Origin: a virus
Taxonomy: Duplodnaviria > Heunggongvirae > Uroviricota > Caudoviricetes
Reading direction: 5' to 3' (one strand)
Length of the DNA: 6,692 nucleotides
Virus record (IMG/VR): IMGVR_UViG_3300001493_000033
The notes beneath the pieces are model-generated. The model searched no databases, was not told the DNA's origin, and was given only the letters and a program-made list of their open reading frames with translations. A program made the translations under genes and the position numbers. Numbering within the stretch: the stretch's first letter is position 1; each line of letters opens with the position of its first letter. Shown here piece by piece: positions 272 through 6,692 of the stretch.

Positions 272-2605
272 TCAGGCTGTCGCAGGGTCGTCACATTTTG
301 GCAGCCAGTCGCCGTAGCTTTCCTCTTTCAGCGTCAGGTTGGTCTGTATCCCCTGTTTGGTATGGCGCTTCTCGTAATTCAGTCCGTATTCCTTCAGCAT
401 CACCGGCAGCCCCAGCCCGAACATTTTCAGACTGAGTACATTCCGGTAGCCGTTTGCCTCCATGTAGGCCAGATAGGCGTGATAGAGGTATTTACAGTAA
501 TTACGCGGGATGATACTGGCGTTCCCCATATACATGCCGCTGGTCTGCGGCAGGGTTTCCAGATAGCCGATAAAATCAAACGTCGGGTCGGCATCCCGTT
601 TGATGTTCAGTGCCTCGTCTGAGTTCTGCTGGGACTGAAGCAGTGACCGGGCGAGCATCGGGTCGCTGAATTTCTGCATCAGGTGACGCACGATGACCGC
701 CAGCTCGCGGGTGATTTTGTCCTTAAGCTGCGGGTCGCGCTCCTGCGGGGCTATCTGTTCCGGGAAGTGAATAATCACCCGCCGGCGTGACACGCCGCCG
801 CTGCGGTCGGTGAAGCGCATCGGGTTATTGTTCACGGCCAGAATNACCGCCGGNATATGCGTGGAGTACGCATCCCGGTATTTCGGGTCCACGGACACCG
901 CATCGCCGCCGGTGATGGCCTTGAGTCCGGCACCGTCGCCGCTCCATTTTTCCTGNTCCGGCAGGCGTATCAGTGAGAAGCCAGTTAACGCGGCACGTTC
1001 ACGCGGGGATTCCAGCGTCTCNATGGTGGCCGACGTGGCGTTATCCTCNCCNGCCAGCAGGGTGGCTATTTCGGCCATGATACTTTTGCCGCTGCCGCCG
1101 GGACCGGTCACCTCCAGAAAGAGCTGCCAGTCGTAGCGGTTTGCCAGCACCATAAACAGTGCNGCCAGAATCACGTCGCGTTTTTCCGCACGNCCACCGG
1201 CGGCACGGTCAAGCCAGCGCCAGAACGCGGGNGCGTGGGTTTCCAGCGTTTCACCNTCCACCGGCGGGGTGAAATCCACATCGCACAGGGTGCGCATCCA
1301 GTGTGACGGACTGTGCGGGTGGAACGTGCCGTTCTGCGTGTCGAGCACGCCGTTACGAAAGCCAATCAGGCGGCGGGAGGGGGCTTCCTGCTGCGGAATA
1401 ATCAGCTTCAGGGTGTCCACCACGGAGGCCACCTTCCCGGAGGAGAACGGCGCGCGCAGACGCTGAAACAGCCCGGCCACATCCCGGGCAAAGTCCTGTG
1501 GTGGCAGCACCTTCCAGACACCATTTTCATAACGGGACAGAAGCTGGCCGTTGGCATCAACCGCGAGCGCCTCGCCGTAATGCTCATAGATACGCATGGC
1601 CTTTTCGCTGGTACTCATGGCGGAAAACTCCGCTTCGCTCATGGTGTCGAACGGGCTTTCAGCCGGTGGCCGGATGGCATCGTAAATGGCCTTACGGGNG
1701 GCCTCCCCGCCGTACTGCGTGAAGGCATCATTCCAGTCACCGAAGACCGGCGGCAGGGCAACAACGCCCTCACACGCATCTGCGGCTGCGGCGGCTTTTT
1801 TCTGGCCGTCACCGCTGAGGTCACGGTCTGCGGCAAGGACAATCTGACAGGCCGGATGCTTCTGCCGGGCAAGGCTGGCCAGAGAAAGGAGGTTCACGGA
1901 AGAAAGCGCCACCATCACCGTTTCACCGGTCAGGTGATGTACGGTAAGTGCGGTCGCGTATCCCTCCGCTATCCACAGACGTTTTCCGGCCTGATTCTGT
2001 CCTTCAAGGNTGTGACAGGTGCCCCTGACCTGNCCGCCTTTCAGGGTGCGCTTACGGCCGTCAGCACTGATTAACTGAAGGTTAACCAGTTCGCCGCTGT
2101 CGTCATACAGTGGCACCACAAGGTCACCGGCGCGCCAGCTCACGCCACCGGCTCTGTGTGTGCCGGTCAGCATCCGGCATTCCCGGCCGGGAAAGCCCTT
2201 GCGGGTCAGGTAGGCGTTACCGGTTCCGGGACGGGTTTTCGCCATCAGGGTTTGTGCCAGTGCGGCGGCGTTCTTCCGGGCAGCGTCTGTTTCAGCACCG
2301 GCGGCNGCCGTCACTGCCGGGTCAGCCGGGGGCAGGCTGCCGGTCACGGCAGCCACCTTTGNGGCCGCGTCGGACGGGGAAACACCAAACACCTTTTCAA
2401 CCAGTTTCAGGCCGTCACCGGCACCACACTGATTGCAGTACCAGGTGCCGCGCCCCTCCCTGTCATCAAAACGGAANCGGTCACTCCCGCCACAGACCGG
2501 ACAGGGCTGATGACGGTTNTTCAGCACCTGAATCCCCAGCGCCGGGAGAATACGCGGCCAGTGGCCGAGCGCATGGCTGACGGTGGCGGTTACGTTNATT
2601 TTCAT
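272..2605 (-). CDS. alpha: P4 alpha-like multifunctional replication protein (zinc-binding primase N-terminus, TOPRIM, SF3/D5-type helicase), 777 aa
   Basis: N-terminal zinc motif CPVCGG...CNQCG; TOPRIM-like LWIAEGYATA...AADRDLSGDG; Walker A GPGGSGKS; RBS AAGGAG 9 nt before ATG at 2605-2603. Several X residues come from ambiguous bases but the frame stays open. Confidence 0.9.
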   Translation of the reverse strand: MKXNVTATVSHALGHWPRILPALGIQVLXNRHQPCPVCGGSDXFRFDDREGRGTWYCNQCGAGDGLKLVEKVFGVSPSDAAXKVAAVTGSLPPADPAVTXAAGAETDAARKNAAALAQTLMAKTRPGTGNAYLTRKGFPGRECRMLTGTHRAGGVSWRAGDLVVPLYDDSGELVNLQLISADGRKRTLKGXQVRGTCHXLEGQNQAGKRLWIAEGYATALTVHHLTGETVMVALSSVNLLSLASLARQKHPACQIVLAADRDLSGDGQKKAAAAADACEGVVALPPVFGDWNDAFTQYGGEAXRKAIYDAIRPPAESPFDTMSEAEFSAMSTSEKAMRIYEHYGEALAVDANGQLLSRYENGVWKVLPPQDFARDVAGLFQRLRAPFSSGKVASVVDTLKLIIPQQEAPSRRLIGFRNGVLDTQNGTFHPHSPSHWMRTLCDVDFTPPVXGETLETHXPAFWRWLDRAAGXRAEKRDVILXALFMVLANRYDWQLFLEVTGPGGSGKSIMAEIATLLXXEDNATSATXETLESPRERAALTGFSLIRLPXQEKWSGDGAGLKAITGGDAVSVDPKYRDAYSTHXPAXILAVNNNPMRFTDRSGGVSRRRVIIHFPEQIAPQERDPQLKDKITRELAVIVRHLMQKFSDPMLARSLLQSQQNSDEALNIKRDADPTFDFIGYLETLPQTSGMYMGNASIIPRNYCKYLYHAYLAYMEANGYRNVLSLKMFGLGLPVMLKEYGLNYEKRHTKQGIQTNLTLKEESYGDWLPKCDDPATA

Positions 2606-2619
2606 GGTGTTGTTCTCCT

Positions 2620-2940
2620 TCAGTGCAGTACCGGCGCTTTTATGTGACGGGCACAGAGTTCATCCNTCACAACCAGCCCGAGAAAGGACAGCGACGGCGC
2701 GGCCTTCAGGGGGCCGGATTCCATTAAATCTTCCAGCAGGGCACAGGCTATCTGACGCCCTTTTTCCTCACCGTGCTGGCGCAGATAAAAGCCTTCCAGC
2801 TCAGCGGCGATGGCCGCCTCCAGTGACTCAAGGGTGAGATGCGGGTAGCGGTGCTGACGTTCGCACACGGTCAGCCAGGCACAGGCGACAGCGCGACGGT
2901 AAAGGGCAGCGCGTAAGACGGGCGGTAAGGGTGTTTTCAT
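2620..2940 (-). CDS. Hypothetical protein, 106 aa, immediately upstream of and coupled to alpha
   Basis: ORF with RBS GGGAGG upstream of ATG at 2940; its TGA stop (2622-2620) overlaps the alpha RBS. No domain recognised by eye. Confidence 0.7.
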
Positions 2941-3075: not shown

Positions 3076-3704
3076 TTACAGATAATTGCGGTAACTGTTA
3101 TCCGGGGTGGTTTCCGGGTCAGGCTCCGTGCGGGGAATTTCCCGCCATTCCCGCGCTACCGGTGCTGCCCGGCTGACCGGAACAGGGTCCTGCGGGTAAA
3201 TATCCAGATATTTCTCCCGCCATTTCTGTAATTCCGGGTCTCCGGCCATTTCTTTCAGTACCGCATGCCGGTTTACGGAGCTGCGTTTAAACAGGTCAGG
3301 ACGGTCACAGGTAAATTCCCGCAGAAAACGCCCCAGCGGGATGTCTGTGGTGCGCCCGTCGGCGAGGATACGCACAAGGATACTGAATTTACGGCGGTAC
3401 GGATTCCAGACAATGTCCGGGCAGCGGTACGGCATTTCCCANNNNNNNNNNGGCTGCGTTTAAACAGGTCAGGGCGGTCACAGGTAAATTCCCGCAGAAA
3501 ACGCCCCAGCGGGATGTCTGTGGTGCGCCCGTCAGCGAGGATACGCACAAGGATACTGAATTTACGGCGGTACGGATTCCAGACAATGTCCGGGCAGCGG
3601 TACGGCATTTCCCACGGAATACCGTCTTCCAGAATGCCGACCACGGCCACATCGGGAAAACCGGCAGAACGGTAAATCTCACCGGGCTGGGGAAAATCAA
3701 ACAT
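3076..3704 (-). CDS. Hypothetical protein, P4 orf151-like; 151 aa once the gap-flanking duplication is collapsed
   Basis: The 143-aa and 119-aa ORF fragments overlap through a 162-bp duplicated segment either side of the N run; merging at MPYRCPDIVW gives 32 + 119 = 151 aa. RBS GGGAG 9 nt before ATG (3704-3702), which overlaps the upstream gene stop (ATGTTTGA). Confidence 0.65.
3280..3614. repeat. Duplicated 162-bp segment on both sides of a 10-N scaffold gap (3280-3441 and 3453-3614); probable assembly artifact
   Basis: Near-identical sequence (2 mismatches) directly flanking nnnnnnnnnn at 3442-3451; collapsing it restores a single in-frame 151-aa ORF. Confidence 0.6.
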
Positions 3705-3984
3705 GCGTCCTGTCTCCCCGGTCTTTCTGCTGGGCGAGAAAATCGCGGCACAGGCCTTTGGCTTTCAGCTCATTCAGCACAAAATCAATATCTTCATTCA
3801 GGTAACTGAAAATATGCGGAATGTAGAGCTGATGCAGGCCGGAGAGTTCACGGTGAATCAAATCACCCCCAACAAACTGGGATACGGCGCTGGCGCGGTT
3901 GAGCTTATGGTAAGCCTCAATGCTGAGGTGTTCACGGGCGTCATGACGTGCTGAGACGGTCTGAGGGGCTTTTTTATTACGCAC
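3697..3984 (-). CDS. Epsilon-position protein, 95 aa, GTG start
   Basis: Open frame ending in TGA at 3699-3697, overlapping the next start codon; in-frame GTG at 3984-3982 preceded by GGAGGU with 5-nt spacing; overlaps the stop of the upstream small ORF. Assignment is by position and size only. Confidence 0.5.
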
Positions 3985-4174
3985 GGGACACCTCCACCAC
4001 CGGCAGACGGGCAGCAAGGGAGAGCACATAGTCACGGACAAGGGAACGGCGGGCGCTGCGTTCATCACCGGCGACGGTGCGAAGCATGCAGATACGGGGA
4101 TGACGGTCTGCGCGACGGACAGCCGCAAACACAAAGACAAATTCAGGGTGTGAGGGGGTAAGGGTTGTAGCCAT
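3977..4174 (-). CDS. Small protein, 65 aa, Kil-position (possible host cell division inhibitor Icd/Kil-like)
   Basis: ATG at 4174-4172 with RBS GGAGG (4186-4182) 7 nt upstream; product [21 protein letters not shown]...; identical copy at 5969-6166. Function inferred from position in the P4 operon, not from sequence recognition. Confidence 0.55.
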
Positions 4175-4181
4175 GATGGCA

Positions 4182-4296
4182 GCCTCCTTGAAGTAACAGT
4201 TACAGCTACCACTGGAGTTCCTACGCTCATGGGTGGTAGCCCGGACGGGGGTAGGAATACCGGCCTTCAAGGAAACCGGCCAGCCCGAAGGCTGCC
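4182..4296 (-). ncRNA. P4-type immunity leader RNA region (CI-like): seqB-like element plus seqC-like target overlapping the Kil-like RBS
   Basis: Plus-strand cttcaagg (4265-4272) and gtaggaa (4251-4257) are complementary to ccttgaag/gttcctac at 4186-4226 and again at 4408-4433; local hairpin gctaccac/gtggtagc (4205-4212/4233-4240); CAGCC-UUCG-GGCUG tetraloop hairpin (4281-4294). RNA boundaries not determinable from sequence. Confidence 0.5.
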
Positions 4297-4377
4297 CCGC
4301 CCGGACCACCATTATCTGACAGAGGCTACGGTTTAAAAACCACAGCCAGAAAAACAGGTGTGCCGAAGCAACGACGT

Positions 4378-4399
4378 AAAAAAAGACGCATGGCGCGTC
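4378..4399 (-). terminator. Intrinsic terminator between the upstream seqA-like site and the seqB element
   Basis: Minus-strand GACGCGCCAUGCGUC (6-bp stem incl. one GU, 3-nt loop) followed by U7 (A-run 4378-4384 on plus); conserved in the second copy at 6406-6427. Confidence 0.55.
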
Positions 4400-4407
4400 A
4401 TATGTCG

Positions 4408-4433
4408 CCTTGAAGTAACTCGGGTTCCTACGC
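4408..4433 (-). promoter_or_regulatory. seqA-like upstream target site (direct repeat of the seqC-like site)
   Basis: ccttgaagtaac (4408-4419) and gttcctacgc (4424-4433) repeat the motifs at 4186-4197 and 4217-4226; both are complementary to the seqB element. Confidence 0.5.
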
Positions 4434-4462
4434 CCGGCTGCCGATTTTGCGGCAGCGGAGAA

Positions 4463-4492
4463 ACTATATCCGCAAATGCCGGAAAAAGGCAA
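4463..4492 (-). promoter_or_regulatory. Candidate sigma-70 promoter (PLE-like) reading toward the immunity region
   Basis: On the minus strand, -35 TTGCCT (4492-4487), 18-bp spacer, -10 TATAGT (4468-4463); conserved in copy 2 (-35 at 6515-6520, -10 at 6491-6496). Prediction by eye only. Confidence 0.35.
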
Positions 4493-4527
4493 GCCAGAAA
4501 AAGGGACTTTTTGCAGAGCGGGCATCA

Positions 4528-4794
4528 TCATGCGTCGTACCCCCGTTTGCGTCCGGCAATGCGCCCGGCCATCCATGCGGTGATTTCAGAGTGCAGCCAG
4601 GCCACATTTTTACCGCCAAGACTCACCTGCGGCGGAAATTCCCCCTTACGGATGAGTTCATAGATGGTCGAGCGTGACAGGCCGCACAGGTGCATCACTT
4701 CCGGCAGACGTAAAAAACGCTCCTGCGTGATGTCCGGCAGCGGCATCAGTGGCGTCACAGGGGCGGGAGACGGGGAAGAAAAAACAGCTTGCAT
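4528..4794 (-). CDS. alpA: AlpA/Vis-family phage transcriptional regulator (excision/integrase regulator), 88 aa
   Basis: Product contains the AlpA-type helix-turn-helix region [27 protein letters not shown]; RBS GAGGU 6 nt before ATG (4794-4792); same size as P4 orf88/Vis. Confidence 0.88.
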
Positions 4795-4970: not shown

Positions 4971-5073
4971 AATTCGTAATTTTTATAGTGAAATACAAAT
5001 CGTTTCTTCTTATTCATTCACAGCGAATTAATAAAAACAAACAGTAGTAAACAGCACAAAAAGTCCATGAGCG

Positions 5074-5178
5074 GGTGAACAGTGGTGAACAGACGGTGAA
5101 CAGTCATTACTGCGATTGTTCACCCNTTAACTTACTGTATTACTTATCTTTTTTCTTATGGTGAACAGAGGTGAACAG
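5074..5178. repeat. Iteron cluster, ori-like
   Basis: GGTGAACAG at 5074-5082, 5084-5092, 5095-5103 (about 10.5-bp phasing), 5160-5168, 5170-5178, and inverted TGTTCACC at 5117-5124; flanked by AT-rich sequence (4970-5070, 5180-5200). Confidence 0.6.
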
Positions 5179-5256
5179 TAAAATATAAAAAAACAAACAG
5201 TAAGCCGGTTTTTCCTGCGACCTTTTCCTGGCTTGCCGGTCTGAGGATGAGTCTCC

Positions 5257-5274: not shown

Positions 5275-5346
5275 TCTGCAATGCGTCGTGTTGTTGTCCG
5301 GTGTACGTCACAATTTTCTTAACCTGAAGTGACGAGGAGCCGGAAA

Positions 5347-5931
5347 ATGTCTGACAACACCATCCCTGAATATCTGCAACCCGCACTGGCACAACTGGAA
5401 AAGGCCAGAGCCGCTCATCTTGAGAACGCCCGACTGATGGATGAGACCGTCAAGGCCATTGAACGGGCAGAGCAGGAAAAAAATGCGCTGGCGCAGGCCG
5501 ACGGAAATGACGCTGATGACTGGCGCACAGCCTTTCGTGCAGCCGGTGGTGTCCTGAGCGACGAGCTGAAACAGCGCCACATTGAGCGCGTGGCACGCCG
5601 GGAGCTGGTACAGGAATATGNCAATCTGGCCGTGGTGCTGANTTTTGAACGTGAACGCCTGAAAGGGGCGTGTGACAGCACGGCCACCGCCTACCGGAAG
5701 GCACATCATCACCTTCTGAGTCTGTATGCAGAGCATGAGCTGGAACACGCCCTGAATGAAACCTGTGAGGCGCTTGTCCGGGCAATGCATCTGAGTATCC
5801 TGGTACAGGAAAATCCGCTCGCCAACACCACCGGCCATCAGGGCTACGTCGCACCCGATAAAGCTGTCATGCAGCAGGTGAAATCATCGCTGGAACAGAA
5901 AATTAAACAGATGCAAATCAGCCTCACCGGC
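5347..5931 (+). CDS. Sid/Psu-family late-operon protein, 3-prime end lost in the scaffold gap (at least 195 aa)
   Basis: ATG at 5347 with RBS GAGGAG 6 nt upstream (ORF track begins at an upstream in-frame GTG, 5329); charged, coiled-coil-like product; first gene downstream of the divergent dyad promoter. Position and length fit Sid better than Psu, but this is not resolved. Confidence 0.55.
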
Positions 5932-5968
5932 NNNNNNNNNNGCTGAGACGGTCTGAGGGGCTTTTTTA

Positions 5969-6166
5969 TTACGCACGGGACACCTCCACCACCGGCAGAC
6001 GGGCAGCAAGGGAGAGCACATAGTCTCGGACAAGGGAACGGCGGGCGCTGCGTTCATCACCGGCGACGGTGCGAAGCATGCAGATACGGGGATGACGGTC
6101 TGCGCGACGGACAGCCGCAAACACAAAGACAAATTCAGGGTGTGAGGGGGTAAGGGTTGTAGCCAT
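5969..6166 (-). CDS. Second copy of the Kil-position small protein (65 aa)
   Basis: Same ATG and RBS context as 3977-4174; the coding region lies entirely within the near-identical duplicated segment. Confidence 0.5.
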
Positions 6167-6173
6167 GATGGCA

Positions 6174-6461
6174 GCCTCCGTTAGATAGCAGGTTACGCTA
6201 TCGCCGGAGTTCTCACGCTCGATGGCGATAGCCCAGACGGGGGTGAGAATACCGGCTCTAACGGATACCGGCCAGCCCGGAGGCTGCCCCGCCTGAGCTA
6301 CCATTGACTCAGTGGCATAACATGCGATTGCAAACAGGATCATACCTGCACGGCAAACCACACGCCACACCATAATCTGGCGCTCTGTGGCGTTGATTGC
6401 GACACAAAAAAAGACGCATGGCGCGTCATATGTCGCCGTTAGATTGCTCGGGTTCTCACGC
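6174..6461 (-). ncRNA. Variant P4-type immunity region (seqA-, seqB-, seqC-like sites with altered but mutually complementary sequences)
   Basis: seqC-like ccgttagatagc (6178-6189) and gttctcacgc (6209-6218); seqB-like gtgagaa (6243-6249) and tctaacgg (6257-6264); seqA-like 6436-6461; hairpin gctatcgcc/ggcgatagc (6197-6205/6224-6232); UCCG-loop hairpin 6273-6286; terminator 6406-6427. Confidence 0.5.
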
Positions 6462-6555
6462 CCGGCTGCCGATTTTGCGGCAGCGGAAAAACTATATCCG
6501 CAAATGCCGGAAAAAGGCAAGCCAGAAAAAGGGAGTTTTTGCAGAACAGGCATCA

Positions 6556-6692
6556 TCATGCGTCGTACCCCCGTTTGCGTCCGGCGATGCGCCCGGCCAT
6601 CCATGCAGTGACTTCAGAGTGCAGCCAGGCCACATTTTTACCGCCAAGACTCACCTGCGGCGGAAATTCCCCCTTACGGATGAGTTCATAGA
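6556..6692 (-). CDS. alpA: AlpA/Vis-family regulator, second copy, C-terminal part only (5-prime end beyond window)
   Basis: Near-identical to 4528-4664; stop codon at 6558-6556. Confidence 0.75.

Follow-up and report, generated by a model that had tools for sequence, protein, structure and literature searches.

The junction at 5932-5941 of the window, i.e., the whole 6,692-nt stretch analyzed here, a draft-quality scaffold of an Escherichia coli P4-like phage satellite, is very probably an artefact of scaffolding, with contigs of two apparently heteroimmune P4-like copies laid end to end. The original prediction had offered two alternatives at this point, namely tandem P4-like satellites or a chimeric join across a repeat. 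The chimeric join is favored by a 163-nt overlap at the other N run of the scaffold, by ambiguous bases falling at copy-variable sites and by a junction seen nowhere in the collections searched, whereas the tandem arrangement is unsupported. It had further suggested that the second immunity region may belong to a separate element elsewhere in the genome. That region very probably comes from another copy of the element, which could lie elsewhere in the same chromosome or in a second strain of the sample, the join being an artefact in either case.

The scaffold consists of three contigs (contig 1, 1-3441; contig 2, 3452-5931; and contig 3, 5942-6692) and, between them, two N runs, each exactly 10 nt long. 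The gene layout of contigs 1 and 2 was read against the annotated map of P4 (X51522 / NC_001609), and the features of the window, with its two immunity modules designated copies A and B, are as follows.

1-230: crr-like region opening contig 1, whose direct repeats are of the GGTGAACA type (P4 ori type 1) and which is placed relative to alpha as is the P4 crr.
272-2605, minus strand: alpha primase-helicase gene in contig 1, coding for 777 aa, the length of P4 alpha.
2620-2940, minus strand: ORF106 / DUF5375 gene, recognized from the ORF list, the complete genomes and the P4 map.
3076-3704, minus strand: ORF151 homologue, split and partly duplicated artificially by the first N run.
3279-3441: last part of contig 1, whose 163 nt recur at the start of contig 2, at an offset of 173 and with 3 mismatches.
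3442-3451: first 10-N run, a spacer between overlapping contigs with no gap, across which the offset to P4 changes.
3452-3614: head of contig 2, duplicating 3279-3441, with the mismatches at 3474 and 3534 at panel-polymorphic sites.
3697-3984, minus strand: epsilon (derepression protein) gene, copy A, complete (Pfam PF25738, E=7.7e-51).
3977-4174, minus strand: kil / Icd-like gene, copy A (NCBIfam NF033153, E=1.6e-21).
4180-4228, minus strand: seqC-like target of the CI RNA, copy A (duplex with the cognate CI loop, -32.0 kcal/mol).
4229-4316, minus strand: CI immunity RNA, copy A (Rfam C4, RF01695, 86.1 bits, E=1.5e-16).
4379-4469, minus strand: early-transcript leader with the seqA-like target, copy A (isrK, RF01394, 73.4 bits; c4-a1b1, RF03163, 50.1 bits; duplex -29.8 kcal/mol).
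4528-4794, minus strand: vis / AlpA gene, copy A, corresponding to P4 ORF88 (Pfam PF05930, E=3.9e-21).
About 5070-5180: ori region with GGTGAACAG-type repeats, in the same place as the annotated P4 ori.
5347-5931, plus strand: sid, of whose 244 codons contig 2 contains the first 195 before it ends (PDB 7JW1, E=2.7e-120).
5932-5941: second 10-N run, an artificial spacer between contigs 2 and 3 and the junction examined here.
5942-5976, minus strand: second epsilon gene, first 11 codons and 2 nt, cut by the start of contig 3 and in register with 3950-3984.
5969-6166, minus strand: kil / Icd-like gene, copy B (NF033153, E=1.6e-21).
6172-6220, minus strand: seqC-like target, copy B (cognate duplex -36.0 kcal/mol).
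6221-6308, minus strand: CI immunity RNA, copy B (RF01695, 74.5 bits, E=1.1e-13).
6407-6497, minus strand: leader with the seqA-like target, copy B (RF01394, 72 bits; RF03163, 49.5 bits; cognate duplex -29.7 kcal/mol).
6556-6692, minus strand: second vis/AlpA gene, C-terminal part, cut by the end of the window (PF05930, E=1.3e-10).

Several of these genes are diagnostic of a P4-like satellite. The alpha gene is annotated as a primase-helicase in complete genomes to which it is 98% identical, a complete epsilon derepression protein is present (that of P4 has 95 aa), and PF05930 matches the AlpA/Vis protein of both copies. Neither NCBIfam nor Pfam contains a model for Sid and its identity was settled by a PDB sequence search, in which residues 1-195 align to P4 Sid (7JW1) with ~98% identity. 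The full-length protein has 244 aa both in P4 and in the complete genomes. The delta and psu genes and the integrase at the tRNA/att would lie beyond the end of contig 2, outside the window, and are present in every complete relative inspected. Contigs 1 and 2 agree with P4 in the order, lengths and orientation of their genes, and contigs 2 and 3 together are 95.5% identical to it at the DNA level; the window differs from P4 in having a 173-nt artificial insertion and a second immunity module after a truncated sid.

That insertion arises at the first N run, where both flanks carry the same 163 nt. The offset between the window and the P4 map is 4364 at alpha and 4191 at epsilon, a shift of exactly 173, i.e., the 163 shared nucleotides plus the 10 N. 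No sequence is missing at this join; instead, 173 nt are spurious, with 3442-3614 constituting the insertion relative to P4. The run is thus an N spacer without a matching real gap, and the scaffolder inserts 10 N regardless of the true distance or overlap. As the same 163 nt flank the first run, the spacers of this scaffold are placeholders rather than measured gaps, and this overlap, together with the shift in offset, means that the second spacer carries no information on adjacency or distance. The ORF list bears the mark of the same artefact: ORF151, which is a single 151-aa ORF in P4 and the complete genomes, appears there as two pieces (3076..3435 and 3273..3704, the second with XXXX), both of which are false ORFs. 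An exact look-up of the 119-aa ORF151 fragment specific to the artefact found none on record. At the second run, the scaffold as written contains a chimeric ORF (5329-5946), in which Sid residues 1-195 are followed by four X's and the stop comes from contig 3; an exact look-up of this truncated product in the protein collection likewise found none on record.

The original prediction had stated that the contig after the second N run repeats 3950-4186, and this is borne out: 5942-6178 is identical to 3950-4186 at 236 of 237 positions, with contig 3 starting in register with 3950 and the sole mismatch (A at 4034, T at 6026) being synonymous in kil. This likeness is far beyond chance. The copies part strongly from 4187/6179, across the CI-RNA core (4187-4371 versus 6179-6399, with a 36-nt difference in length), and are ~94% identical again from 4372/6400 to the end of the window; the true boundaries of divergence are, hence, those between 4186 and 4187 (equivalent to 6178 and 6179) and between 4371 and 4372 (equivalent to 6399 and 6400). 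The further claim that contig 3 begins exactly where the identity starts is true by construction, as the contig has no sequence to the left of 5942, but there is no homology boundary at that point. In B-type elements the sequence leftward of the equivalent of 5942 is >99% identical to contig 2 (at most three differences over 3452-3949 in L001 and L006) and, still further left, from alpha through crr, the complete genomes are 98-99% similar. Because the homology continues leftward in this manner, 5942 is situated 237 nt inside a shared backbone, and describing the break as one at a repeat boundary is imprecise, in that contig 3 starts within this backbone and not at its edge. Similarly, the gene to the left of the gap is indeed Sid, for which, with residues 1-195 of 244 at hand and P4 Sid as the close match, the label ‘Sid/Psu-family’ was a loose one.

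The ambiguous bases of the scaffold offer a view of how the copies were handled in assembly. There are 26 isolated n's, 22 in contig 1, four in contig 2 and none in contig 3. In an alignment of contig 1 to a panel of eight complete elements from closed genomes (L001-L008), 123 of its 3441 positions are variable, and 13 of its 22 isolated n's coincide with these panel-variable sites (odds ratio 43, Fisher p=3e-14; the n's span 81-2666). The other nine lie away from such sites, and some of the n's may simply be low-quality bases. This pattern, the one expected of a collapsed repeat in the contig neighboring the join, suggests that at least two slightly different copies were collapsed into the consensus of contig 1. 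As none of the four n's in contig 2 (4905, 5126, 5621 and 5642) is at a panel-variable site, the argument for collapse holds for contig 1 only.

Both joins show a comparable relationship to copy-variable positions. The two internal mismatches between the tail of contig 1 and the head of contig 2 (3301/3474 and 3361/3534) are at sites that vary among other P4-like elements, which indicates that the tail and the head come from different copies. Owing to the mosaic nature of the elements, the haplotypes of these two ends map uncleanly onto the ‘A-type’ and ‘B-type’ members of the panel. At the second join, contig 2 ends on a panel-variable base (5931, sid nt 585, C/T), and the position immediately to the left of contig 3 (the equivalent of 3949, T/C) is likewise variable in the panel; L006, which together with one other element comes closest to contig 3, has the other allele at both. 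These coincidences, at variable-site densities of ~2-5%, suggest that the contigs were broken where the reads of the two copies disagree.

The second immunity region on contig 3 is real sequence and a distinct module with its own CI RNA. Each copy has its own Rfam matches to C4 (full-length), isrK and c4-a1b1, the C4 scores of both being above the gathering score of 45. Allele A (4170-4460) is ≥99% identical in 131 complete E. coli genomes and allele B (6162-6488) in 38; a comparison of these 38 with 60 listed of the 131 revealed no genome carrying both alleles. The CI loop of allele A reads CCUUGAAGG...UUCCUAC and that of allele B CCGUUAGAG...UUCUCAC; both differ from the P4 loop, CCUGUGAAG. 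In each copy, the upstream seqA-like and the downstream seqC-like boxes complement the copy's own CI loop, and the P4 targets match the P4 loop in like manner. The computed energies of the cognate duplexes range from -29.7 to -36.0 kcal/mol, as against -17.5 to -22.1 kcal/mol for the cross pairs. In P4, base pairing of the CI RNA with seqA and seqC, while the early transcript is still being made, leads to its premature termination. Given this mechanism and the greater stability of the cognate duplexes, copies A and B are predicted to be heteroimmune, as P4-like elements residing together usually are. As the immunity core differs between the copies, it is only there that the assembler could separate them. 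A and B represent two further specificity alleles of the P4-type RNA immunity (RF01695, RF03163 and RF01394), sharing with it a C4 RNA, a leader and two targets matching the copy's own loop, and departing from P4 itself in their loops with matching changes in the targets. The retronphage phiR73 is a heteroimmune variant of the same type of immunity. Each of the two alleles is already known from numerous complete E. coli genomes, and neither carries any mechanistic novelty.

Across the three systems, A, B and P4 (L009 ~8380-8660), the cognate duplexes are ~10-15 kcal/mol more stable than the cross pairs, and this clean natural three-way co-variation of CI loop, seqA and seqC is a mildly useful by-product of the analysis. 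In RefSeq, a 196-aa ‘Icd-like’ ORF (L001 10803-11393) and an ‘ash family’ pseudogene (L007 9030-9407) each directly overlie the CI RNA gene together with its targets, with the RNA itself left unannotated.

Mapping of the window to closed sequences provides a further view of the join. In the best complete genomes, the whole 6692-nt window covers only ~5792 nt, and contigs 2 and 3 (3241 nt) map to 2525 nt of P4; with the mapping thus shortened, contig 3 folds back onto a region already covered by contig 2. The canonical order, alpha-orf106-orf151-epsilon-kil/cI-vis-ori-sid-delta-psu-hotspot-int-tRNA, is seen in P4 and in all nine complete-genome loci inspected (eight intact elements and one with an internal deletion), among which allele B occurs at four different chromosomal integration sites and allele A at two. 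We also searched 5,426 complete E. coli genomes with a synthetic 300-nt junction query, in which the final 150 nt of contig 2 are followed directly by the first 150 nt of contig 3. The two halves came within 650 nt of each other in a single genome, GmM062, which was rejected as a match since the order there is reversed (kil, then sid), the equivalents of 4189 and 5692 having been brought together by an internal deletion. A sid-to-epsilon junction in the order of the window was, hence, found in none of the 5,426 genomes. A junction pattern allowing either exactly 10 or 0-30 bases between the two flanks, validated by its matching the window itself, also gave no match among the GTDB species representatives or the JGI metagenomes.

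These searches bear directly on the notion that the window records a genuine rearrangement, a local duplication or insertion in one element by which a truncated sid became fused, or nearly so, to a second epsilon-kil-cI module. The sequence as written has this form, and internally deleted or rearranged P4-like elements exist, GmM062 being an example. We nevertheless regard it as exceedingly improbable, in light of the absence of the junction from the complete E. coli genomes, GTDB representatives and JGI metagenomes searched, of the join itself being an N run with no sequence, of both flanks stopping at copy-variable sites and of the other N run of the scaffold being demonstrably artificial.

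Were two heteroimmune P4-like satellites truly integrated head to tail at a single attachment site, the 10 N would have to hide ~9-13 kb, as estimated from the P4 map and the complete loci, comprising the 3' end of sid, delta, psu, the hotspot, int, att, crr, alpha, orf106, orf151 and the 5' end of epsilon. The orientation of contig 3 relative to contig 2 is that which such a tandem would give, and a collapse of the second alpha into contig 1 would account for the missing intervening copy. Tandem or partially tandem P4-like elements are also mentioned for complete genomes by Moura de Sousa and Rocha 2021 (PMC8628076), and the window resembles these in presenting two core gene sets in the same orientation within one record. 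There, however, the tandems are in closed sequence, whereas adjacency in the window rests on an N spacer and the two sets have no delta, psu, int, att, crr or alpha between them. Continuity from int/att into crr/alpha is likewise absent from the window, only 10 N standing between the modules, and an equal 10-N symbol marks an overlap at the other join and so conveys neither linkage nor distance. Nothing in the window requires a tandem. None of the nine complete loci inspected, three of them from genomes with two or three elements, has a second element within 7-12 kb, and P4-like elements are described as mostly single, as never exceeding three per genome and as scattered over the chromosome (PMC8628076). 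On balance, we consider a tandem at this locus improbable.

A second synthetic query, joining the 5' end of a tRNA-Sec-type integrase to crr and thereby covering tandems of the tRNA-Sec type only, was run against the same 5,426 complete genomes. Its halves lie close together in 23 of them, always with an identical 1328-nt span. These matches were rejected as tandems: the one inspected, in ABWA45, is a crr-[deletion]-int remnant at tRNA-Sec. The 1328-nt remnant common to the 23 genomes has crr joined to a truncated integrase and, in ABWA45 (L012, NZ_CP022154.1, 14001-15328), an IS3 lies beside it.

The two copies might instead belong to two strains of a mixed population, with one P4-like element each (A or B), in which case the join would be an artefact and no second element would exist in the genome. 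The n's at variable sites, the unmerged overlapping ends with allelic differences and the fold-back mapping are all compatible with such a mixture. Moreover, 34 of the 38 complete genomes carrying allele B have a single P4-like immunity region. [quoted passage not shown] The window by itself fits either arrangement, and a mixture of strains with no second element in the genome strikes us as quite unlikely.

Returning to the reading of an artefactual join between two heteroimmune copies, we propose that the source sample contained at least two closely related P4-like satellite copies bearing the immunity alleles A and B. The near-identical stretches (crr, alpha and orf106) would have been collapsed by the assembler into contig 1, with an n where the reads disagreed, while the differing CI-RNA immunity core would have yielded one contig per copy, contig 2 for A and contig 3 for B. 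These contigs would then have been output serially with 10-N spacers and without a check for overlap. We infer that the pipeline step behind their order was most likely one using the start position on a single reference element, or else one following read-pair links confused by the repeat. Contig 3, in truth parallel to 3950-4664, would thus have ended up downstream of the truncated sid, and the B copy in the source would be expected to continue leftward into epsilon-orf151-alpha. The outcome resembles the false duplications and collapsed repeats of draft assemblies in three respects: the unmerged overlapping contig ends around a 10-N run, the ambiguous bases at copy-variable sites, and a branch contig (contig 3) laid after its homologue and not parallel to it.

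The junction is thus very probably an assembly artefact of an ordinary kind, the biology beneath it is known, and there is nothing novel in it: P4-like satellites, their interchangeable CI-RNA immunity alleles and the frequent presence of several such elements per E. coli genome are all established. Its main value is as a caution for the annotation of this scaffold, which would lead to a truncated chimeric Sid, a split ORF151 and a spurious ‘double immunity’ satellite being called and perhaps to the counting of a tandem element that is not there.

The complete loci inspected alongside the window show some variation of their own. The P4-like element of GmM062 (L011, NZ_CM183653.1, 11505-12485) lies at tRNA-Sec, with its deletion joining the start region of kil to about codon 116 of sid. 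It lacks the CI RNA, vis, ori and the 5' end of sid, has an internal stop in psu and adjoins a retron St85 RT/effector pair. The delta protein is a single Ogr/Delta unit of 81 aa in A27, Ec-U3 and GmM062 (L001 12940-13185, L002 12940-13185 and L011 12632-12877, respectively) and a double unit of 166 aa in P4 and the remaining loci (e.g., L003 and L007). The interval between psu and int, the known P4 defence hotspot, carries different cargo in almost every one of L001-L008, including a UvrD-like helicase with an ATP-dependent nuclease (interrupted by IS1), SIR2, HEPN, paired Ser/Thr kinases and a DUF87/FtsK-like ATPase.
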